A stretch of 48,974 bases of DNA, from assembly GCA_046593815.1 (NCBI GenBank), contig JBKJQV010000347.1, forward strand, positions 1-48,974. The letters run 5' to 3'. This document shows positions 1,020 through 44,261 of this stretch, piece after piece. Position numbers and translations under genes: made by a program. Position 1 is the stretch's first letter. Every line of letters starts with the position of its first letter. The notes under the pieces were generated by a model. It saw only the letters and a list, made by a program, of their open reading frames with translations, searched no databases and was not told where the DNA came from. Origin of the DNA: Sediminibacterium sp. GTDB taxonomy: Bacteria; Bacteroidota; Bacteroidia; Chitinophagales; Chitinophagaceae.

Positions 1020-1151
1020 TGCTAACAGATTGTGGCTTTATTTCAGTTGCGAATTTCGTAACTGTATATTTTCCGCCGCCACTAAACGTAATGCGAAAGG
1101 TGAACGTAATTTTACCACTAAACTCGCAATTGGATAAAACCGCTGTTAGTG
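1020..1151 (+). repeat. attC-like site 1
   Basis: TGCTAAC ... GGCTTTATTTCAGTTGCGA / TCGCAATTGGATAAAACC stem ... GTTAGTG. Confidence 0.75.
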
Positions 1152-1185
1152 GCTGGGCGGATTATAACCACTAAATATAAATAGA

Positions 1186-1431
1186 ATGACAGCAAAAGAA
1201 TGGCTTGATGTAATGAAACAGGCAGCAGATTATAACCCTGTAATGACAGCATTGATTGAGAAGTATGGCGATATGTTATTAGAAGAACAGAACTTAGCAA
1301 TTAAAAATTTCCGTGTAGCTGGTGTTACCAGCATGTCTTCGCTTATGCACCACTGCGGTAATGAATTAACCGAAAAGGAGGTTTTTCACGACCACTGCCT
1401 AAAATGTAGTGAATACATAAGCGAAGATTGA
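1186..1431 (+). CDS. Hypothetical cassette protein with C-terminal Zn-ribbon-like motif
   Basis: 81-aa ORF with HHCG...CLKC; stop codon abuts attC-like site 2. Confidence 0.6.
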   Translation: MTAKEWLDVMKQAADYNPVMTALIEKYGDMLLEEQNLAIKNFRVAGVTSMSSLMHHCGNELTEKEVFHDHCLKCSEYISED

Positions 1432-1562
1432 TGCTAACGGATGGTGCTTTGCGAGGTTGTGAACTTCGTAACTACAATTATTCAACTTAAAATAAATATA
1501 AATGCGAAACGAAAATATGATTGAATCACAGGATTCACAATCTTGCAAAACACGTGTTACAG
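1432..1562 (+). repeat. attC-like site 2
   Basis: TGCTAAC ... GTGCTTTGCGAGGTTGTGAA / TTCACAATCTTGCAAAACAC ... GTTACAG. Confidence 0.8.
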
Positions 1563-3340
1563 GCATTACGGGTTTGAATGTACTATCTCTTTTTGACGGT
1601 ATGAGTTGCGGACAAATTGCACTCCAAAAAGCAGGGATAAAAGTAAATCAGTATTACGCTGCCGAAATAGATAAACACGCTATGAAAGTAACGCAACACA
1701 ATTTCCCAAACACTATTCAGTTGGGAGATGTAACCAAAGTAAAAGTAAAAAAACTTTACTTATCGGAGGTTTATTCGTATATTTGTAATTATGATAATAA
1801 TTTACAAAGCAAAATTTCCGAATGGGAAATGTTATATTGGATTGACAAGAAATTCACTATGTCAACGAAAATCGGAACACAAAAGCCGAATGAAGGACAA
1901 AAAGTACAACAATTTACTGTTTTACAATGCATTGAGGAAATACTCTTTTCAAGCAATACTTTGGGAAGTATTGGCAAAAATGGAAACGATAGAAGAAGCC
2001 GAAAAGATGGAAATAAGGATGATTTTAGAAAATCCTTCAAACTACAACGTAGCTGCTGGTGGTATGACTATGAGTTTTACCCCAGAAATTTGCAAGAAAA
2101 TATCGGAAAGTCAAAGAGGGGTACAGAAAACGGAAATTCAAAAAAAGAGAATATCGGAAACATTAAAGAAGAGGTTTTCAAACAAAAACGAGAGGTATTT
2201 GATTTCGGAAAGAACCAAAAAAGCGATGTGGAAGCCAGAGGTGAGGGAAAATTATTTGAAAGGTCGGGAGAAAATAAATTACAAAGAGAGGTCAAAGAAA
2301 AAGAGGGAAACGGAGGAAGTGAAGAGATTGATTCTATTAAAGAAATTATCCGAGAATTACAAGCATGGGATGAAACTAACGGAATTGAAAGTGATTACTG
2401 GAATATCCTACGACTTCATAAGGAGGAACAAGTTACGGTGGTTGAGCATGAATATGGATTTCAAATCTTTAAAGGAAGTATAAATCTTTGTATTGGCGGC
2501 AGCCCCTGCCAAGGGTTTAGTTTTGCAGGTAAACAATTGAATTTTGACGACCCAAGAAGTAAATTATTTTTTGAATTTGTAAGACTATTGGACGAAACGA
2601 AACCAAAATACTTTTTACTTGAAAACGTGCTTATGAAAAAAGATTACGAGCAAATAATTACAGAACATTTAGGAGTTGAACCAATATTTATAAACAGTTC
2701 TTTAGTTTCTGCTCAAAACAGAAAACGCCTTTACTGGACGAACATACCAAACGTAAGCGAGCCAAAAGACAAAGGAATAACCTGGGGTGATGTACGAGAA
2801 CGAGGTGTAAATACTGAAAGCTATTACTACACAGAAAAAGCAATGCAATGGCTGGCAAGAGTGAGCCAAAAGAAGAATAAAACTTTAACGGTTCATTCTG
2901 ATAATGACAAAATGCAAATGCTTGAAGCAAGTCATCATAAAAAATATAGCAATCAAAGATTTTTTGGAATAGTAGATTTACCTGAAAACGAACAAGCTAT
3001 TGCAGCGATGAGAGGCAGGTATTTAATTGACGGTAAAAGACAAGACGGTAAACAAAAAACAGAAGGATTGACAAAGCAATACATTGAATTTAGGTACGAT
3101 GGTAAAACAAATGCACTAGCTACTGTTGGAAAAGATAATGTAGTAGTTCCTTTTACTTTACCAAATAGAATACCTGCTGATGAATTTTTCTTTAGGTACA
3201 TAACTCCTTTAGAATGCGAAAGATTGCAAACTGTACCCGATAATTATTCTGCTATTGTAAGCAATTCTCAAAGGTATAAAATGTTAGGCAACGGATGGAC
3301 AGTTGATGTAATAGCTTACATCTTCGGAGGACTTTCGTAG
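1502..3340 (+). CDS. C5-cytosine DNA methyltransferase with a ~246-aa in-frame insertion
   Basis: Motif I LSLFDGMSCG, motif IV GGSPCQGFS, motif VI LLENV, motif VIII QNRKRLYW, and motifs IX-X ECERLQT...LGNGW; insertion lies between GDVTKV and INLCIGGSPC. Confidence 0.92.
   Translation: MRNENMIESQDSQSCKTRVTGITGLNVLSLFDGMSCGQIALQKAGIKVNQYYAAEIDKHAMKVTQHNFPNTIQLGDVTKVKVKKLYLSEVYSYICNYDNNLQSKISEWEMLYWIDKKFTMSTKIGTQKPNEGQKVQQFTVLQCIEEILFSSNTLGSIGKNGNDRRSRKDGNKDDFRKSFKLQRSCWWYDYEFYPRNLQENIGKSKRGTENGNSKKENIGNIKEEVFKQKREVFDFGKNQKSDVEARGEGKLFERSGENKLQREVKEKEGNGGSEEIDSIKEIIRELQAWDETNGIESDYWNILRLHKEEQVTVVEHEYGFQIFKGSINLCIGGSPCQGFSFAGKQLNFDDPRSKLFFEFVRLLDETKPKYFLLENVLMKKDYEQIITEHLGVEPIFINSSLVSAQNRKRLYWTNIPNVSEPKDKGITWGDVRERGVNTESYYYTEKAMQWLARVSQKKNKTLTVHSDNDKMQMLEASHHKKYSNQRFFGIVDLPENEQAIAAMRGRYLIDGKRQDGKQKTEGLTKQYIEFRYDGKTNALATVGKDNVVVPFTLPNRIPADEFFFRYITPLECERLQTVPDNYSAIVSNSQRYKMLGNGWTVDVIAYIFGGLS
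1755..1785 (+). promoter_or_regulatory. Bacteroidota sigma-A-type promoter for the nested GIY-YIG gene
   Basis: -7 box TATATTTG at 1778-1785, 5 nt before ATG 1791; TTTA about 19 nt upstream. Confidence 0.65.
1791..2483 (+). CDS. GIY-YIG homing endonuclease with NUMOD3-like repeats, nested in the +1 frame of the methyltransferase
   Basis: IIYKAKFPNGKCYIGLT, conserved R..EH, E and YN residues; NUMOD3-like FTPEICKKISESQRG and KTEIQKKRISETLK. Confidence 0.9.
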   Translation: MIIIYKAKFPNGKCYIGLTRNSLCQRKSEHKSRMKDKKYNNLLFYNALRKYSFQAILWEVLAKMETIEEAEKMEIRMILENPSNYNVAAGGMTMSFTPEICKKISESQRGVQKTEIQKKRISETLKKRFSNKNERYLISERTKKAMWKPEVRENYLKGREKINYKERSKKKRETEEVKRLILLKKLSENYKHGMKLTELKVITGISYDFIRRNKLRWLSMNMDFKSLKEV

Positions 3341-3343
3341 TAT

Positions 3344-3470
3344 TGCCTGTAACGTTTGCGGCTTGGCGATGTTGCCGCTTCCGCAGCCAAATTGAAAAAC
3401 AAAAGTTGATATTATGAATAAAAGTCTAATAGATATTCACGGCAATATTGCCAAACCGTTTGTTACCTGC
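3344..3470 (+). repeat. attC-like site 3
   Basis: TGCCTGTAAC (exact complement of cassette start GTTACAGGCA at 1556) ... CGGCTTGGCGATGTTGCCG / CGGCAATATTGCCAAACCG ... GTTACCTGC. Confidence 0.85.
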
Positions 3471-3506
3471 TGGGCGGTCAATCAGTAGGAACTAAAAACT
3501 AATAAA

Positions 3507-3725
3507 ATGAAAAGATTTATTTTGGTAGAAGTCCCAACAGAAGCAACAGAAGTTTTTATAAATAATGTTGGATGTCTTAGATATTCGCATAATAAAGGCA
3601 GAGAATCAACAGCTATTGAACCAACTCAAATAGGGCATTATTTAGAAAAAGACAAACATAGGATAGTTGGTGAATCGTTAAGCGAAAACAAAAGACGGAT
3701 TGTCATTGAAATGGATGAATGGTAG
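3507..3725 (+). CDS. Hypothetical cassette protein
   Basis: 72-aa ORF with A-rich leader that fills the interval between sites 3 and 4. Confidence 0.7.
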   Translation: MKRFILVEVPTEATEVFINNVGCLRYSHNKGRESTAIEPTQIGHYLEKDKHRIVGESLSENKRRIVIEMDEW

Positions 3726-3729
3726 CCTT

Positions 3730-3867
3730 GCAGGTAACGTTTGCAGCTTTGCGAAGGCAGGGCAATTGAAATACAAATGTTCAAACACTTGATGAAGATA
3801 AATTATTAAATAACTGCTCGGATTAAGAACGTCAGCCCTGCTTTTGCAAAACTGTTTGTTAGCTGCC
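3730..3867 (+). repeat. attC-like site 4
   Basis: GCAGGTAAC (exact complement of GTTACCTGC at 3462) ... CAGCTTTGCGAAGGCAGGGC / GCCCTGCTTTTGCAAAACTG ... GTTAGCTGCC. Confidence 0.85.
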
Positions 3868-3899
3868 GTTTTTTGTCAGAGTGCAAAAACAAAAAATAA

Positions 3900-4169
3900 T
3901 TGAAAACAATTGATGAAATAGCTGATAATAATATATCAGGATGGGAAGACTTCACTTCTGGCTTTTCTTCTGATATAAAAGATGCTATGAAAGAGTATGC
4001 AGAAGAGTATCATTTATCTCAATTACAAAAAAAATATAAACCACCTTTTTGTAAAGGGTGTAAGTATTGGACTGTAATAGATGCTTTAGGTGGAGATTAT
4101 TGTAGGGTTTTAGAAAAATCAGTAGCATCGCCAAAAATTGATTATAAACACATAGACTGTCCGCTATGA
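3900..4169 (+). CDS. Hypothetical protein with CxxC...C...CP motif
   Basis: TTG start after an A-rich leader; ATGA overlap with the next gene. Confidence 0.6.
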   Translation: MKTIDEIADNNISGWEDFTSGFSSDIKDAMKEYAEEYHLSQLQKKYKPPFCKGCKYWTVIDALGGDYCRVLEKSVASPKIDYKHIDCPL

Positions 4170-4618
4170 TACATAATATAAAAGATAAAAACATAACACT
4201 TACACCATTGAATTTAATTAAAAATTTTGGTGTATTTGACTTAGACCCTTGTGGTTTACAATGGCATAAAACAGCAAATAAAATAATCTCTTTGCCTGAT
4301 GACGGATTAGTTGAAAATTGGGAAGGAAGAGTTTGGCTTAACCCACCATATTCAAATACAAAACCATTTATTAAAAAACTTGCAGAATACGGTAACGGAA
4401 TTGCATTAGTGTTAAACTCTACTGATACTGATTGGTTTCAAGAATATGGATTAAAAAAGGCAAACGGAATGTATTTATTGAAAGGCAGACCAAAGTTTAC
4501 AAGAATGGATATGTCCCCTGTATCAATAATGAGAGGAGTTGTTTTGTTTGCTTATGGAAAGTCAAATTGCGAAGCACTCCAAAATTGTCAATTAAATGGT
4601 TACTATGTCGGTCTTTAA
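4166..4618 (+). CDS. Phage N6-adenine DNA methyltransferase (Dam-like)
   Basis: FDLDPC, DGL..NWEGRVWLNPPYS, TDTDWFQ and LKGR.KF motifs typical of phage Dam-family methyltransferases. Confidence 0.85.
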   Translation: MIHNIKDKNITLTPLNLIKNFGVFDLDPCGLQWHKTANKIISLPDDGLVENWEGRVWLNPPYSNTKPFIKKLAEYGNGIALVLNSTDTDWFQEYGLKKANGMYLLKGRPKFTRMDMSPVSIMRGVVLFAYGKSNCEALQNCQLNGYYVGL

Positions 4619-4631
4619 AATGGCAGGTAAC
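4617..4631 (+). repeat. Orphan R''-like half-site closing the two-gene cassette
   Basis: AAAATGGCAGGTAAC matches the complement of cassette start GTTAGCTGCCGTTTT (3858) at 13/15 positions; no stem follows. Confidence 0.7.
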
Positions 4632-4831
4632 ACATATATATACGAACCTTTTTATTCATATCACCCCAAAGTGACCAGTTTATTGAGCAAAAAACTTGAC
4701 AACTACAATCTACAGCCGCAAAAAGAATACAGAAGTTAAAACTTATAAAATGATTTCTGATACAATGGGATTTATGTTTAAGTTTTTAACTGATGATGCC
4801 GAAAGATTTATGAACGATTATAAAGAATATC

Positions 4832-5047
4832 ATGGATACAAAGTTGCTAAATACACTTACGAAGAAGCTAAGTAAAATAGAAGCGGCACTGGATAAGTGC
4901 CGTACTTCTGTTTTAGAAGATGGCTGGCAGACTATGCGTTATGCCAAAAAATCCAGGAAATGGGATTACTACGCACAAGAGAAAATGAAACTTTTACAAC
5001 AAATTGAAGATTATGAAAATAGTATTGGTATCAATGAGAAAGTATAA
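4832..5047 (+). CDS. Hypothetical protein
   Basis: 71-aa helical ORF in a run of closely packed genes. Confidence 0.6.
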   Translation: MDTKLLNTLTKKLSKIEAALDKCRTSVLEDGWQTMRYAKKSRKWDYYAQEKMKLLQQIEDYENSIGINEKV

Positions 5048-5255
5048 AATGAGATTAGGTTGGAAGTATCGACTAAAGAACTTTTTCACAGTAGAAAAAT
5101 ATTGGAGCGGTAAAATAATTCAATTTAGAATCCTTTGTGAATATGGGTTTGATATTGATTTACGGCAAGGTGGATTTAAGATTACTGATTTATTAAATGA
5201 AAAAGAAAAGAAACGATTTTATTTAGGCATGTGGTTAAGAAAAAACAAAAACTAA
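5004..5255 (+). CDS. Hypothetical protein (true start probably an internal ATG)
   Basis: ORF track; overlaps the upstream gene. Confidence 0.5.
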   Translation: MKIMKIVLVSMRKYKMRLGWKYRLKNFFTVEKYWSGKIIQFRILCEYGFDIDLRQGGFKITDLLNEKEKKRFYLGMWLRKNKN

Positions 5256-5261
5256 TAATAT

Positions 5262-5462
5262 ATGAAAACAGCAATGACGCAACTAATTGAGATGCTTGAA
5301 AAGACAGTGCCGGAAATAACAAACGGTAATGCTATTGATAAAGCGTTTTGGATTGAAATGGAAAAGGAACAAATTACTGAAGCAGTAAAGATTGGTGGCA
5401 TGAGGAAGCTGGGAGATTTTAAAGCCGAAGATCATTATAACTTTACTTTTACTAATGACTGA
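5262..5462 (+). CDS. Hypothetical phage protein
   Basis: MKTAMTQLIE...EMEKEQI.EA pattern resembling small proteins of Bacteroidota phages. Confidence 0.7.
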   Translation: MKTAMTQLIEMLEKTVPEITNGNAIDKAFWIEMEKEQITEAVKIGGMRKLGDFKAEDHYNFTFTND

Positions 5463-5664
5463 TAAACGCAAAAACAACGGCGGAGCTAGGAAAGGTGCTG
5501 GCCGTAAAGCAAAAGAAAACACGGTTACAACCGGATTTCGTGTGCATGAAGAAAGTTTGAATATTATCCGGGCTGAAAATTACCCGATAAACAAAGACGT
5601 AAACTCTTTAATTAAACGGGTTGCAAAAAAGCTGAATGTCAAACGAAATGCTGAATATGATTAG
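5455..5664 (+). CDS. Small DNA-binding protein (GGARKGAGRK motif plus ribbon-helix-helix-like region)
   Basis: DKRKNNGGARKGAGRK followed by a beta-alpha-alpha-like pattern. Confidence 0.7.
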   Translation: MTDKRKNNGGARKGAGRKAKENTVTTGFRVHEESLNIIRAENYPINKDVNSLIKRVAKKLNVKRNAEYD

Positions 5665-5690
5665 GATGTGTGGCAATGGCGCAATATGAC

Positions 5691-5824
5691 ACATAACGTT
5701 GGTGCTTGCCGAAGTAGCGGAATTGGCAGCACTAAAGTTAAATTGAAAAACAAAAGCTAAACAAATTATTCATCAGCCGAACAATGAACGTCAAGCAGCT
5801 ATTTTGGCAAACACATTGTCAGGC
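5691..5824 (+). repeat. attC-like site 5 (core GTC instead of GTT)
   Basis: ACATAAC ... GTGCTTGCCGAAGTAGC / GCTATTTTGGCAAACAC ... GTCAGGC. Confidence 0.8.
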
Positions 5825-5839
5825 ATAGTACGGTAAATT

Positions 5840-6157
5840 ATGGAAGCAATAAAATTCAGATTTTGGAACACAGACTATACTCATAATCCTATGATGGAAG
5901 TCGGGACTACGGAAGATTTAAAATTTGTAGAACGGTCTATTGGCAAAGATAAAATGCTATTTACAGGGCTTTTATCAAAGAATGGGAAAGATGTTTATGT
6001 TGGCGACATTATGGATTATGGTAATAACAGGATGAAAGAAGTCATATTTGTAAATGGCGTTTTTTGTCTTAAAGGATTAGAAACAATGGCTTGGCTAATT
6101 CCTATGTGTCCGTTGATTAGTAACAAATATGAGTACCCCGAATTAGTAGGAGTGTAG
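5840..6157 (+). CDS. YopX-family phage protein (cassette-borne)
   Basis: IKFRFWN...MLFTGLLSKNGKDVYVGDI...NKYEYPELV. Confidence 0.85.
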   Translation: MEAIKFRFWNTDYTHNPMMEVGTTEDLKFVERSIGKDKMLFTGLLSKNGKDVYVGDIMDYGNNRMKEVIFVNGVFCLKGLETMAWLIPMCPLISNKYEYPELVGV

Positions 6158-6160
6158 TAT

Positions 6161-6295
6161 TGTGCCTAACGGTATCACGCTTGGCGAAGGTGGCGATTTT
6201 AACCACAAATGCTGATGCGGAGAACGAATGTTGAACATAGCACAAAACTGTCTCTGGAGTAGCGAACCGCCACTTTTGCCAAACGTCTGTCATGC
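6161..6295 (+). repeat. attC-like site 6 (core GTC instead of GTT)
   Basis: TGTGCCTAAC (near-complement of GTCAGGCATA at 5818) ... ACGCTTGGCGAAGGTGGCG / CGCCACTTTTGCCAAACGT ... GTCATGC. Confidence 0.8.
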
Positions 6296-6384
6296 TCTCG
6301 TTGCGGTTTTTACCACAAAACTTCATTCGGAGCAAGGTTTTTTGTTCTTTTTTCAGCGTAGGCAAAAAATATTTTACTTTTTTC

Positions 6385-6415
6385 TTGTGTATGTCGTATA
6401 TATGATGTATATTTG
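6385..6415 (+). promoter_or_regulatory. Bacteroidota sigma-A-type promoter
   Basis: TTG(6385)-N20-TATATTTG(6408-6415), upstream of ATG 6438. Confidence 0.75.
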
Positions 6416-6437
6416 TATCGGATTTAAAACAAAGCAA

Positions 6438-6641
6438 ATGGCAACTACAAAAACACACGAATTATCAGCTTACACAATAGCTAAAAATTGTTCAGATTTA
6501 TCAGATGTAAATGCTGGTATGGATGAATTAAAAGACTACTTCACCGCTTGTGAAAAAGCAGGTAAGAAACCAACTACAACTGCATATATAAGATTTGCAA
6601 AACTTGGAATTAAAAGAGATAAACTAAATAAAAAAAAATGA
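6438..6641 (+). CDS. Hypothetical protein (start revised to ATG 6438)
   Basis: MATTKTHELS... follows the promoter; the longer ORF from 6228 reads through site 6 and the promoter. Confidence 0.7.
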   Translation: MATTKTHELSAYTIAKNCSDLSDVNAGMDELKDYFTACEKAGKKPTTTAYIRFAKLGIKRDKLNKKK

Positions 6642-6904
6642 AACAAGACTTTAAAAAATGGATTACTCTACATAAGGGTAAGCTATTAAACGCAGAAATG
6701 ATTGAAATGATTTCTCAAAAACACGAAGATGAAATAGGTGATATGTTATACAATGAAGGGATGTGCCTTGAAAGTATGGATACAGGCAAAAATATAATTT
6801 ATGGCGGTTGTGAAAAAGATGATATGAATTGGGCTGTGCAAGATATGTGGAAAACAGAACGTGAGTTTAAAACATTGAAAGGAGCGATAAAATTTGCACA
6901 ATGA
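6638..6904 (+). CDS. Hypothetical protein
   Basis: ATGA overlap with the next gene; C-terminal FKTLKGAIKFA motif. Confidence 0.7.
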   Translation: MKQDFKKWITLHKGKLLNAEMIEMISQKHEDEIGDMLYNEGMCLESMDTGKNIIYGGCEKDDMNWAVQDMWKTEREFKTLKGAIKFAQ

Positions 6905-7044
6905 AAAAGCTAATTGATATACCCGAAAAAATAGTCAAAGACCTAAAAAAGATGGCTATTGATGCAGACAAAGACCTTAAAAACTTCATTCAAGACCATT
7001 TAGTTTTACTTGTGTGTGAGGAGAAAAAAGAACAAAAAACTTGA
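6901..7044 (+). CDS. Ribbon-helix-helix-like small regulator (47 aa; not in the ORF track)
   Basis: Own translation: MKKLIDIPEKIVKDLKKMAIDADKDLKNFIQDHLVLLVCEEKKEQKT. Confidence 0.7.
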   Translation: MKKLIDIPEKIVKDLKKMAIDADKDLKNFIQDHLVLLVCEEKKEQKT

Positions 7045-7456
7045 CAAACAATAGGTATATTGAATTGATTAATAAGCAATTATAAAGAGGCACATAGTAA
7101 GTAAAATACATAACAATGAAATTAATATAACATCAAATGTTTACATTTGTATAAGTTTTTAATAACGGTGCAGGTTATATTGGAGAAAAGAATTGGCATC
7201 AAAATCATTCGGCTGAAAAGTGGAGTTAACATTTGTTTTAAATCACACAATTTTGATTCGCCAATATGTGCTAAAGAGGTAATAACGGAATAAAATGCTT
7301 TGTAGAGTGAAATTATTAGTGTAAATTTACGTATCAAAAATATATGTGTAAATTTTCTACATTTTAGTTGCGTATATCGTTGATAGTTAGTATCTTTATG
7401 AGTATAATTACAAAAAAATGAGAACAACAGAAGAAGAAGAGGGTTAAAATCAAAAT

Positions 7457-8941
7457 ATGTATACAATAAGAATAGAAAAAAGGTGTGGACCTGAACTTAG
7501 TGCCATGGGTTATAGTGTGGCGAAATACGCAGATACTTTTAAAACGATAGCCGAATTAATTGCTTATCTTAATGATATATGGAATGACAATATTACATAT
7601 ATAGAGATTAATTCAGATAAAGAGATTATTGATGATAACCATTGTACTATTGTAGTATGTTCTAAGGATAAGCGCGATTCAATGTTCTATATTAACGATT
7701 TGGTATCTTATATTAATTCTCTTGATATATCTTCAGTAAGAAAATTATTCATAAGAGCGAATCAATATAGGTGTGGAGAGGCCACGGTACTTCCTCCATG
7801 TTCTGATGAAGCGAAGTTAGATTTTGAAAGCTTATATTTAATAGAGAAGGAGAATTTAAAGATTGTCACCAAAATTAAAGATGGGTTAAGTAATGCATAC
7901 AAGGAGTTAAACAAAGATTATAATCAGTACAGGGCCAACCAAGCCCATATCTGGGCCAAACATTTGACTGCTAATCCATTACAAGAAAAACAAACAAAAA
8001 TAGAGCTTGTTTCAAAGGGAATAAAGATAGCTGAGCTAGAAAGGCAAGTTGCAAATTTCAAACGTAGATTTGAAGAACAGCGCAGTATAAATGAAAAACT
8101 TAGAGAAGATGCCGAGAAAAAGACTTATCCACCGGGAGGTTATGCCTGTAGCAAAAACAAGGAAGCACCTATGAATACAAAGAGGCCTTTATATTCATTA
8201 ATGAAAGAAATTGTAATAGATGGCATTAAAATATTGATTACCGATATCAGAGAGGAGAATGGCCAATATAGTTACAAATTAGAATTATGGCCGAGACCTG
8301 AATACACACAACAGCATGAAAATATTGTAATAGCCACTTTATATAAGGGAATAAGATTAAACTGGTATACTGAAAAAGCAGTAACTGATTTATTAAAAAT
8401 TGGTGAATTTCCTAAGCCAGAGAACATTGTAAGTCAAAATGCGCCTTTTAGGAAATCGGAAGAAGTAAAAAAAGAAGATAATTCAAAGGGAAAGGATGGA
8501 TTAATTGAAAGGGATTTTTTAGAAAAATTTAAGAACCTAAGCCCAGAAGACAAGGCCTCAGCACAACAATTCGCTGATTCATGTGGAAAGAAGCTAGAGG
8601 AACTAACGATAACGCATTTATTGAACGGTGGTCCTGTAAAGATGACGTTCTCATGCAGCGACATAGATTTAAATAATGTAACGCTATATCCAGAAATGGA
8701 CTGTTCGGCAGTAAAAAAAGAAGAGCCAGATAAGCCTGGGCCTGGTGAAATCCTTAGTAAATATGGAAAAATAGTAACAAGTAATGCATATTCACTTGAC
8801 GGTCTGTTAATTGTGATAAGAAGGGATAGCAAGGATGTAGCTTTTAATATATCTGATTGCAATAAAGCCTATCCAGACTATACAAGACCAGAGATTAGTC
8901 TGATAGATGACGAGATAATAATTTTAAATCTAATAAAATAA
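7457..8941 (+). CDS. Hypothetical protein with central coiled coil
   Basis: 494-aa ORF with no recognised catalytic motif. Confidence 0.75.
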   Translation: MYTIRIEKRCGPELSAMGYSVAKYADTFKTIAELIAYLNDIWNDNITYIEINSDKEIIDDNHCTIVVCSKDKRDSMFYINDLVSYINSLDISSVRKLFIRANQYRCGEATVLPPCSDEAKLDFESLYLIEKENLKIVTKIKDGLSNAYKELNKDYNQYRANQAHIWAKHLTANPLQEKQTKIELVSKGIKIAELERQVANFKRRFEEQRSINEKLREDAEKKTYPPGGYACSKNKEAPMNTKRPLYSLMKEIVIDGIKILITDIREENGQYSYKLELWPRPEYTQQHENIVIATLYKGIRLNWYTEKAVTDLLKIGEFPKPENIVSQNAPFRKSEEVKKEDNSKGKDGLIERDFLEKFKNLSPEDKASAQQFADSCGKKLEELTITHLLNGGPVKMTFSCSDIDLNNVTLYPEMDCSAVKKEEPDKPGPGEILSKYGKIVTSNAYSLDGLLIVIRRDSKDVAFNISDCNKAYPDYTRPEISLIDDEIIILNLIK

Positions 8942-10538: not shown

Positions 10539-11114
10539 TTAATTAATATCCCATATTTCAATAGGTAAATACTTACGGCATATATTAGCTGTTTCTAATT
10601 GGTTTTTAGTTCTTGCAGCATTAGCATAAGAAGCAGCAATAACAGCAGCATTAGCTGCTGCAAAAGCTGCATCAGCAGCATCATTAGCAGCATTAGCTGC
10701 TGCAAAAGCAGCATCATTAGCTGCATTAACTGCTGCAAAAGCAGCATCATTAGCTGCAAAATCATCAGCAAAAGCAGCAGCATTAGCAGCATCAGCCGCC
10801 TTAACAGCATCAGCAGCAGCAACCTTTAATTGCTCTATTTCTATCTCTCCATTTCCAAAAGCAATAGCCGCCTTAACAGCATCTATTGATCTTTGATCAC
10901 TCATTAGGTGTGATACAGTAGCTGCACAATGGCCTTTTGTCAAAGTTAACTCTCGTAAATTATTTGGATTAACTTTTTTATAAAGCCATAACAACCAATC
11001 ACCACGTTGGCAATCATCAAAAACTTCTTGCCATGTTTTATCTTGTGCCCATAGCTTTGCATCATGACAGGCATTGTGCTTTTTTAATAATTCTTGAAAT
11101 TCAAAAGTATTCAT
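10539..11114 (-). CDS. Phage protein with Ala-rich low-complexity repeat
   Basis: HNAC...RGDWLLWL N-terminal domain, DQRSIDAVKAA motif, then AANDAAFAA-type repeats (~10614-10822). Confidence 0.8.
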   Translation of the reverse strand: MNTFEFQELLKKHNACHDAKLWAQDKTWQEVFDDCQRGDWLLWLYKKVNPNNLRELTLTKGHCAATVSHLMSDQRSIDAVKAAIAFGNGEIEIEQLKVAAADAVKAADAANAAAFADDFAANDAAFAAVNAANDAAFAAANAANDAADAAFAAANAAVIAASYANAARTKNQLETANICRKYLPIEIWDIN

Positions 11115-28859: not shown

Positions 28860-30410
28860 ATGGCAATTCCAGCAAAATTTGAAAAATTTAAAGTATTCCA
28901 ATACGATGCTAGTTCACAAGAATTAGCAAATAAGCTAGTTGACGAGAGAGCATTTTACTCGTATTACCCTCATGCTATGCAATATGACGAGCTTGAGCCG
29001 TCAATGCGGAAAATGGCATCCAACAATTACCCTACGATTATCAAAGGGGATTCGTTGATGAATATCTTTGAACAGCAATCCAAAATAGTAAATACTACTA
29101 TGGATTACATCAGATGGAAGCTGTTTTTTGAAGCGTCTGATCTTAGAGCTATAATCACATCAATTCAATCAACAAACAATGGTTGCTTGGGTGTAAATGG
29201 GTCTATTTTTGAAATGGGAATGACTGCAGATGTGTTCGGTCCAAATGATGTAATTATCTTAGAAGGTCTTCCTGAATTGCCTTTGTTATGTAAATCACAT
29301 CCTAAGTCAATAGGAATTGAATATGTTTATGAATGGGCATTGCTTGATGGCGAAGGATATATCGATTCAGCTTGGATTAAAGTAGGTACACAGGCTAAAG
29401 CTCAAATAGGTTCACTAAGAGGAGAAGGAAACGTAGAGCGTGGTAACGTTCACTGGACTTCTGGAAACTCTTTCATTGAATTTGAAGTACCAATGACCTC
29501 AATGGGTTGGGAAATGAAAGTTACAAACAAAGCATGGTTGGCAGCTAAGCATTATGCTATCAGGCCATGCATGAAAGAATATATTGACATGACCGGTGGT
29601 ACGGATATTGTATTCTCTCAATTTGACAGCAAGTTCAAACAAGTCACTGACAGACAGTTAGACTTATGGATGGCTTGGGGTCGATCATCTGGAAAATATA
29701 CAGGTAAGCACTTAGACGGTATCACCGAGAAGCCGTTAACAACCGGTCCTGGCTGGTATCAATTCATGGAAAGTGCAAACTATCTTGAATTTAATCCACA
29801 TCAAAACATTATTGAATTTTTCAGAAATTATATCCCTCCAACGTGGAATGATAAGGTAAAGATCGAAGATCAAATCCTTGATGTCTATACAGGTAGAGGT
29901 GGATTGACATTAGTTCAGAAAGCAGGAGAAGAGTTAGACAGCAAAGGCGCTGTGCTTCAAACTGCTGAATATAACTATACCACTGAAAAGGCATTTTTCG
30001 CAGGTAGGAAGGCAATTGCGCTTGGAGCCAAGCAATACCGAGCATTCTATATTGAGCCTTTTGGATTGGTTAGATTTCACCATTTACCAATGCTAGATTC
30101 AACTACAATTGATACTAGAAAGTATAATGGTTTACCATATCAATCATACGAATTTATCGTATTCAATGATGGACGTGGTGACGGAAGAGAAGAGAATATT
30201 TACATCTTAAGAAATGAAGATGAATCACAATACTTATATTCTACTGGTACTTGGACACCAACAGGAGCAGCTGGAAAGAATGGCAATGCTCAAAAATACC
30301 ACAACGGTATGGGGAACGAGAATGCATACAAAATCATCAGGGAAGAAAAAGTCGGATTAGCTGTTAAGGATCCAGGTTATATTACTTGGTTGAGAATGGC
30401 AATGAAATAA
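28860..30410 (+). CDS. Major capsid protein (crAss-like)
   Basis: 516 aa; position; YIRWKL, WGRS...TGPGW..., YTGRGG and G.V...HLPMLD motifs resembling crAss-like capsid proteins. Confidence 0.85.
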   Translation: MAIPAKFEKFKVFQYDASSQELANKLVDERAFYSYYPHAMQYDELEPSMRKMASNNYPTIIKGDSLMNIFEQQSKIVNTTMDYIRWKLFFEASDLRAIITSIQSTNNGCLGVNGSIFEMGMTADVFGPNDVIILEGLPELPLLCKSHPKSIGIEYVYEWALLDGEGYIDSAWIKVGTQAKAQIGSLRGEGNVERGNVHWTSGNSFIEFEVPMTSMGWEMKVTNKAWLAAKHYAIRPCMKEYIDMTGGTDIVFSQFDSKFKQVTDRQLDLWMAWGRSSGKYTGKHLDGITEKPLTTGPGWYQFMESANYLEFNPHQNIIEFFRNYIPPTWNDKVKIEDQILDVYTGRGGLTLVQKAGEELDSKGAVLQTAEYNYTTEKAFFAGRKAIALGAKQYRAFYIEPFGLVRFHHLPMLDSTTIDTRKYNGLPYQSYEFIVFNDGRGDGREENIYILRNEDESQYLYSTGTWTPTGAAGKNGNAQKYHNGMGNENAYKIIREEKVGLAVKDPGYITWLRMAMK

Positions 30411-43191: not shown

Positions 43192-44261
43192 TGGGAGAAG
43201 TTGACAATAACATATTATTAAATAACACCCCTGATAAAACAATTTATTGGACAGGTGAATCTGTTCCAGAGTTGGGAATATTTAGGGGCATGTTATATAA
43301 TGACGTTATTAGCAATTTAATTAAATCTTATCTTGAATTAAAAAATGCGACAATAAATATTGGTGCGCTTAGTGGCAAGCCAGAAGTAAACGTAAGTAGA
43401 GATGAAGCTATTAGTGCTATGTCTCAAAAAATGTTAAATTTATCAACCAGTGATATTAAACATGATGGAATTCCTTTTACTTATAATCGATTAAGTGTAG
43501 ATGCTTCAAAATTCCTTGGATCTAAATTTTCATATAGTGTAGAAACTGATTCCAATGGATCTAAACTAGGAATTAACTTAAAAGAAGGATTAACAGGTGA
43601 TGTTTTATCATCTAGGGTAATTGTATCTGGAAAATCAACAAATGGGAAAAATGTAGTAATGGATAGTAGTGAAAAAGTTACTTCCGTTTCTATTAAAAAT
43701 GAAATGTATCCTATAAATATTGATATATTATCTAGGGTACAAACAAAAGGTGGTATTGTGGACCTAACGAAACAAATTGTTTTGCGCAATCCGTCTGAAT
43801 CTGGATCATTTGAATCACTTTATGATGTAAAAGACAGATCATTTTCAAGTCCGTTTTCGGGCAATCTTAGCGATTTACTTGGAGGGATGGAAGCGACACA
43901 AGACCGATTGGAGCAGTATCATGATGTGTTAAAAAACACAAGCGAAGGGGATATTGTGAATAGAGTAAGTAGCAATGAACACAAAATTGCTAGTATAGAT
44001 GAAATGGTTAAAAGTAATGAGACTGTTGAAATATCACTTGCTGGTTCATCAGGAACAGTGACGACAAAAACAGTTACTCCACAGAAAGCCATTAACAGTC
44101 TAACTGAGACAGTAAATAAGTTATTGGGTGACAGCACTCAACTTAAAAGCGACATTGCAGGCGTACAAAACAAGGTTGGTAATATTTCTAATCCGACTGG
44201 AGGAGGCATTCCTGGTACAACCAGTGAAAACTTAACTAGTGCGTCAAATGGAGCAGCATGA
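43191..44261 (+). CDS. Structural protein with coiled-coil C-terminus
   Basis: IYWTGESVPELGI..G..YNDVI motif. Confidence 0.7.
   Translation: MGEVDNNILLNNTPDKTIYWTGESVPELGIFRGMLYNDVISNLIKSYLELKNATINIGALSGKPEVNVSRDEAISAMSQKMLNLSTSDIKHDGIPFTYNRLSVDASKFLGSKFSYSVETDSNGSKLGINLKEGLTGDVLSSRVIVSGKSTNGKNVVMDSSEKVTSVSIKNEMYPINIDILSRVQTKGGIVDLTKQIVLRNPSESGSFESLYDVKDRSFSSPFSGNLSDLLGGMEATQDRLEQYHDVLKNTSEGDIVNRVSSNEHKIASIDEMVKSNETVEISLAGSSGTVTTKTVTPQKAINSLTETVNKLLGDSTQLKSDIAGVQNKVGNISNPTGGGIPGTTSENLTSASNGAA

Follow-up and report, generated by a model that had tools for sequence, protein, structure and literature searches.

A candidate recombinase-less row of integron-like cassettes with a docking end in a crAss-like phage contig

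Integrons, as portrayed in the accessible parts of two accounts (PMC5027507, PMC4889954), place a recombinase beside a hairpin-less site and carry an array of hairpin sites with AAC cores, in which one strand is the stabler and the ends of each cassette pair with each other. The system described here is alike in these respects. In integrons, the strand that recombines is the one with the more stable fold (PMC5027507, partial text), and recombinases near attC sites that lack the IntI domain have been judged not to be IntI (Cury et al. 2016, PMC4889954, partial text). The available portions of the IntegronFinder 2.0 paper name one complete integron in Bacteroidetes proper, and those of Ghaly 2021 list Bacteroidota only as a phylum having integrons. 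Groups of clustered attC sites that have no integron-integrase (CALINs) have been published from virulent phages, and the available part of that study (Qi et al. 2023, PMC9892861) reports 17 phage CALINs and activity of IntI1 on five of six tested sites. A row of similar appearance lies near the start of the window, which is the whole 48,974-nucleotide stretch analyzed here (contig JBKJQV010000347.1, assembled as Sediminibacterium sp.). An initial annotation, made from the sequence alone, had read it as an undescribed array of attC cassettes in a crAss-like phage. It is quite probable that the row is a recombinase-less series of swappable phage cassettes, each consisting of a hairpin site and the gene that follows, with a docking end at position 4628, and that a small tyrosine recombinase of Xer-like type, supplied from outside the contig, moves it.

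Six sites with the order TAAC, stem, loop, stem and GTT or GTC were recovered by a stem scanner between positions 1000 and 6400 (Table 1). The shared architecture that had been proposed for them is real, as six sites lie within 5.4 kb and 300 dinucleotide shuffles gave two hits, with at most one per shuffle. The eight arms quoted initially are all where they were placed. The dimensions are somewhat different: sites measure 122-134 nt with 7-nt cores, not 125-140, and a short spacer does precede GTT or GTC but is 1-3 rather than 2-3 nt long. The row spans 5.3 kb, with a biggest gap of about 1.8 kb and no integrase nearby, and is thus clustered in the manner of a CALIN. On the + strand of the 49-kb window, no further site scores 14 or more, and a single weak match near 43200 scores 12. 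A half site at 1324 is presumably a decayed site. The core and paired ends of integron attC sites are present, with GTC in two of the window sites. Bulged, extrahelical bases are usually absent, since 339 of 373 stems, a set biased by the search patterns used, pair ungapped and have fixed mismatches; five of the six window stems are likewise ungapped.

Pairing between cassette ends is a general property. In the four units for which it had been quoted, 9, 8, 8 and 8 of the ten bases at positions 5-14 pair, as claimed, and 245 distinct units at 145 loci, viral and our own, average 7.1 of 10. Random pairs and the two flanks of a single site each give 3.4 of 10. End pairing alone cannot show which arm is cut. 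On the phage coding strand, however, the spacer after TAAC exceeds the spacer before GTT, with an offset of 2-4 at 392 of 413 sites, and the longest open reading frame (ORF) lies on this long-left, short-right strand in 237 of the 242 units having one. Chromosomal arrays of Bacteroidota, read on the recombinase strand, have the reversed offset in 15 of 17 and, with two duplicate loci counted, 29 of 33 sites in two analyses, and their cassette ORFs lie on the recombinase strand in 12 of 13 cases. The coding strand gives the stabler fold in 333 of 378 phage sites, against 1 of 16 host sites, where the non-coding strand is stabler in the other 15. All six window sites fold more stably on the coding strand, E1 marginally so. 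Offset, ORF strand and folding therefore indicate that phage genes are antisense to the host layout and predict a cut in the left TAAC.

Exchange points between relatives fall at this arm. Loci L062 and L102, which were collected by protein and not by site, have an upstream site and gene in common, the shared stretch beginning immediately behind TAAC and running to the following TAA. In 21 pairs of homologous units, which are not independent because members recur, the upstream site is at least 0.91 identical in nine and the downstream site is never above 0.62 identical; the 99th percentile of the background is 0.71. The data for the window's own cassettes come from the matches listed, in short contigs in which breakpoints inside sites also occur, and contigs from run X1, which may be the source of the window, were left out of this support. 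In run X3, from another study, window positions 1474-1627 are present across the GTT of E2, and positions 3250-3354 are present without a difference and lead into a different site, so that a copy identical over 105 nt changes its neighbor at 3354. X3 also joins another cassette end before 4628. Copies in runs X2 and X4 start at 3735-3736 with foreign DNA upstream, and one X4 piece extends to 3894.

These contigs of other studies bear out the proposal that modular cassettes are exchanged at TAAC/GTT sites. The claim that integron attC sites recombine here at G^TT is not supported, as exchange occurs at the left TAAC and the recombinases found near such rows are insertion-less and below the integron-integrase cut-off (see below). 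With exchange located at the left TAAC of the coding strand, each hairpin goes with the gene that comes after it, and the integron-cassette order of a gene and then its own attC is replaced by a site that precedes its gene. Of 111 units with an open frame from GTT onward, 88 obtain an in-frame ATG from the site that precedes them, compared with a mean of 38 and a maximum of 50 for random sites. Such sites thus often appear to hold the start codon of the following gene.

No tyrosine recombinase or remnant was found in the window, a partial genome, and the adjoining IntI gene of an integron is accordingly missing, as had been noted at the outset. Among the viral loci collected here, three have a recombinase directly after the array. 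An alignment search for that recombinase yielded 80 viral loci. A site lies upstream of it at 52 of the 59 viral loci with at least 1 kb upstream (36 of 41 after clustering at 90%), and sites were found downstream at none of 76 loci. In a tree of 115 sequences built with FastTree, from which L311 and sequences below 200 aa were left out, the viral enzymes, three excepted, group in a single clade (support 0.945) separate from the chromosomal enzymes; the deeper nodes of the tree are weak. At locus L311, a methyltransferase runs in frame into the recombinase to give one 464-aa ORF.

The IntI-specific insertion is not present in the L153 enzyme, with 26 residues in the place of 69 in IntI4. All four phage and host enzymes tested score below the cut-off of TIGR02249 (integron integrase) and match it in two pieces. 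The best profile for phage and host enzymes is the XerA-like NF040815, also below its cut-off, and the best solved relative is 4A8E. Homologues occur in 49 of 151 genomes of the phylum, and named carriers are mostly Chitinophagaceae, with other Bacteroidota. An enzyme encoded by the host or elsewhere had been expected from the start. The 400-contig bin that includes the window (as contig C335) has five PF00589 matches, all on other contigs, but none reaches the TIGR02249 cut-off. On C383 (G000:C383:2031-2773, L010), an insertion-less recombinase with a frameshift follows a purE-like gene and is itself followed by two host-polarity cassette genes.

The first row of window cassettes ends at 4628 in a candidate docking site. 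In related phages, the last cassette closes in a TAAC that has no hairpin and mostly lies 40-70 nt ahead of where the recombinase begins. A profile built from 27 of 37 recombinase-proximal ends of other phages ranks 4628 first among approximately 97,900 window positions and also selects both equivalent ends on contig C226 of the bin. By position and profile, 4628 has the character of an attI-like primary site without a hairpin, with docking as its candidate function. Judged by eye, it is similar to what precedes the integrase in the cultured Polaribacter phage Leef_1 and, when reversed, to a motif after host recombinases (12 loci). Leef_1 has a recombinase, two detected sites upstream and a similar docking stretch; 'integron' and 'cassette' are absent from the accessible text of the Leef paper. 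The arm at 4617-4631 quoted initially does pair as described, but it is outside all six hairpins and is part of this hairpin-less end. No recombinase remnant follows 4628. A degenerate docking pattern allowing one mismatch was not significant alone, with two matches against 1.04 expected, and the profile test was used instead. Another hairpin-less TAAC, at 813, follows a third methyltransferase gene (N6 type, 79-783) upstream of E1 and has a poor docking-site score.

A mechanism can be proposed in which the cut position, the single-strand substrate, the circles and the enzyme source are taken from integrons by analogy. The coding strand would be exposed as single-stranded DNA and fold into the hairpin, which an insertion-less Xer-like recombinase would cut between A and C of TAAC (AA^C). 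Recombination between two sites would free the cassette as a circle, whose site is closed by the paired ends of the gene. This circle would insert at the docking site, on the transcribed strand of the phage, so new cassettes would join the row at its downstream end, and the row would be read from upstream phage promoters toward the docking site. Since each gene comes after its hairpin, the loop can carry the start codon of that gene. An enzyme that lacks the IntI insertion would be well matched to stems mostly free of bulges, with fixed mismatches and an uneven spacer. The likely benefit would be rapid replacement of accessory genes, anti-restriction methyltransferases among them. The enzyme has close to an even chance of being of the phage type, supplied by an unseen part of the genome or by a co-infecting phage; the host's related enzyme is a possible but less favored source. 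It is unlikely that the system is no longer active here.

Several observations weigh against such a row of mobile cassettes. Only four units in the window are clean. The unit at 1145-1438 is chimeric and does not pair at its own ends (2 of 10). A pairing start could not be found for the unit that closes at 5697, nor did a TAAC-type end turn up for the one that opens at 6289, and E5 and E6 lie in a block with incomplete ends. The docking site leads by a modest margin (13.9, with the next position at 12.7). The upstream site is not common to 12 of the 21 homologous pairs, two of which agree in their bodies at 92-95% identity, so the site upstream of a gene is also replaced at times; in addition, most loci were collected by site patterns, which favors shared sites. 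No excision joint or circle junction was seen at any site in contigs, which lose rare variants. The array-associated recombinase of the bin is frameshifted, and many host recombinases have no detected site nearby (14 of the 37 with at least 2 kb of downstream sequence in one analysis, and 31 of 45 within 1.5 kb in another). The window contig represents a crAss-like genome only in part, and co-binning is no proof of host.

Some of these features would be expected if the recombinase had been lost and genes now moved by homologous or microhomology recombination between similar sites. There is no enzyme behind the docking site, a half site and two GTC cores are present, the sites resemble one another at about 53%, and a 2.3-kb block has a short direct repeat, not sites, at its boundaries. 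Such a fossil is nevertheless improbable, as breakpoints concentrate at TAAC instead of spreading over the site, the identical 105-nt copy switches its neighbor at 3354, and six stems are still intact. A classical CALIN, with attC cassettes of normal polarity cut at G^TT of the coding strand by a host IntI, would account for the AAC/GTT cores, hairpins and paired cassette ends, and for the ability of IntI1 to recombine phage sites. Exchange at the left TAAC, the lack of a bin recombinase at the TIGR02249 cut-off and the mostly ungapped stems all argue against it, and the sole tested site of the present build, P12002L_attC1, yielded no verified IntI1 junction in the available text of PMC9892861. 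We regard it as very improbable.

The elements might instead act as RNA, for example as terminators, translation-control stems or repeats of the repetitive extragenic palindromic (REP) type, with end pairing as part of an RNA structure. Better folding of the coding strand and the presence of start codons in the loop speak for this, and an additional role in mRNA is possible. However, a match to a known REP or terminator family, which would have undermined the cassette proposal, did not emerge: no Rfam family reaches threshold for the window, and terminator-like matches, together with promoter matches in a scan for the sigma-70 type, stay at the level of shuffles or chance. Identity with a known structured RNA or terminator was rejected on these grounds. 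An RNA function also leaves unexplained why a recombinase occupies one fixed end of such rows and why exchange occurs at TAAC, and as a full explanation it has only the slightest probability. The reading preferred here remains a row of swappable cassettes without its own enzyme.

The window appears to derive from a crAss-like phage, as first annotated. This predicted identity is supported by a Crassvirus capsid protein (PF23898, 64 bits in a profile search with a cut-off of 27), a terminase (PHROG 6681) and a portal (PHROG 6547). The capsid query found no relatives in viral_contigs. Two further phage-like contigs in the bin have sites oriented as in the window. One of them (G000:C226, L009) has seven sites and two docking-like ends. 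The other (G000:C237, L012) has a cassette whose first letters are nearly identical to those of the unit after E6, and its cargo includes ORFs that resemble an arginyl-tRNA synthetase and a Gp37/Gp68-type protein. Four host-like contigs (C180, C344, C363 and C383) bear sites in reversed orientation.

The cargo of the row comprises a C5 methyltransferase, a Dam-type methyltransferase, a YopX protein and three ORFs without a family. In a search of the phage collection, only the methyltransferases matched, among 50 of 82 records listed. Related C5 methyltransferases were examined at 80 viral loci, only 4 of which had clear site rows, and the gene family is therefore not confined to cassettes. The 81-aa ORF is likely a fusion of two cassettes because it reads through the half site at 1324; within that half site, positions 1336-1347 pair perfectly over 12 nt with the unit end before TAAC 1435. 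The C5 methyltransferase frame remains open through about 245 extra codons (1746-2490) that its relatives lack, and an X4 contig joins 1627 to 2501 without this insert. The homing-endonuclease-like ORF occupies nearly the whole insert and leaves little space for an intron core, and the insert is possibly an overprinted, non-splicing endonuclease insertion.

The 2.3-kb block with E5 and E6 is missing from an X3 contig, in which 4656 is joined to 7033, and from the counterpart on C226, whose end is 92-95% identical to window 4628-4709 fused straight to 7030-7137. Position 7556 was considered as the end of the unit starting at 6289 (8 of 10 pairing) and rejected, as its AAT core is within an ORF. 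The unit after E6 has a promoter-like motif, presumably of the Bacteroidota type, and small regulator-like ORFs (5455-5664, 6370-6420 and 6901-7044 of the window). A similar layout in one C226 cassette suggests promoter-bearing cassettes. Elsewhere in the window, a 191-aa protein (10539-11114, - strand) has an alanine/aspartate-rich tract of 9-12-nt repeats. At the contig end, positions 1-74 and 127-200 form a near-perfect inverted repeat of 74 nt, likely an assembly artefact because X1 and X3 contigs start at 68 there.

Table 1. Sites, genes and other features of the cassette row (window positions)
Feature	Coordinates	Strand	TAAC start	GTT/GTC start	Description
E1	1023..1148	+	1023	1145	TAAC, 5-nt spacer, stem, loop, stem, GTTA
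81-aa ORF	1186..1431	+			No family
Half site	1300..1347	+		1324	Right arm with GTTA; left arm not found
E2	1435..1559	+	1435	1556	Loop has in-frame methyltransferase ATGs (1502, 1517)
C5 cytosine methyltransferase (PF00145)	1502..3340	+			Cassette ~1438-3352; in-frame insertion of ~245 codons
Homing-endonuclease-like ORF (PHROG 314/7168/5123)	1791..2483	+			Overlaps methyltransferase in another frame
E3	3350..3465	+	3350	3462	Found by stem scan
72-aa ORF	3507..3725	+			No family; cassette ~3353-3737
E4	3735..3861	+	3735	3858	Homologous copies in other samples start at its TAAC
89-aa ORF	3900..4169	+			No family; first gene of cassette ~3738-4630
N6-adenine methyltransferase (PF05869, Dam)	4166..4618	+			Second gene of cassette ~3738-4630
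Candidate docking (attI-like) site, hairpin-less	4628..4645	+			Ends first row; no recombinase after it
Block	4710..7029	+			Interrupts docking-site region; holds E5, E6 and partial cassettes; short direct repeat at bounds
E5	5694..5821	+	5694	5818	GTC core; preceding unit without pairing start
YopX-family ORF (PF09643)	5840..6157	+			Cassette ~5697-6169
E6	6167..6292	+	6167	6289	GTC core; following unit without accepted end

The CALINs of Qi et al. are the nearest published relatives of this row, being likewise integrase-less clusters of AAC/GTT hairpins with methyltransferase cargo, one of them in a Bacteroidota phage (PMC9892861, partial text). To that extent the system is not undescribed. 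The reversed polarity, the docking site and the phage recombinase family, by contrast, were not found in a literature search that covered subscription papers thinly. The accessible portion of the Qi study describes 'divergent directions' in Polaribacter phage P12002L but no systematic reversed polarity, and includes no docking site, no phage recombinase family and no phage called crAss-like. P12002L (L483) has sites of the window's build on its coding strand, and its P12002L_attC1 has an offset of +3. At 29100-29250, the hairpin-less end of its methyltransferase row is overlapped from the opposite strand by P12002L_attC2, and this overlap may explain the 'divergent' sites. The result for P12002L_attC2 was rejected as support for the cut position, as it involves a different AAC and a heterologous enzyme.

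Xer recombinases work on double-stranded dif sites. The phage and host enzymes found here have their nearest profile among XerA-like proteins, within the XerA/XerC/XerD group (PMC8138268, partial text), and unlike Xer they are located at the end of variable cassette rows. Compared with integrons, the recombinase has no IntI insertion, the genes face the docking site and the recombinase, and each hairpin precedes its own gene. The spacer is strongly asymmetric (about 5 versus 1-3 nt), and fixed mismatches take the place of bulges. The insertion was not fully conserved in the integron-like subgroup of Smyshlyaev et al. 2021, as far as the available text goes. The row is probably an enzyme-less member of an integron-like variant, which would function like an integron and departs from integrons in enzyme, bulges and polarity. 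This gives a site-specific account of why small variable genes and methyltransferases cluster in Bacteroidota phages. It also challenges the rule that hairpin-site recombination requires the IntI insertion, which serves as a filter in integron surveys. On balance, we lean toward the view that Bacteroidota have in common with their phages a second integron system independent of IntI, in which an insertion-less Xer-like recombinase would act on asymmetric, bulge-less hairpins. Phages would use it mirror-wise, with start codons in the site, and enzyme-less phages such as this one would keep docking sites for a shared pool of cassettes and borrowed enzymes.

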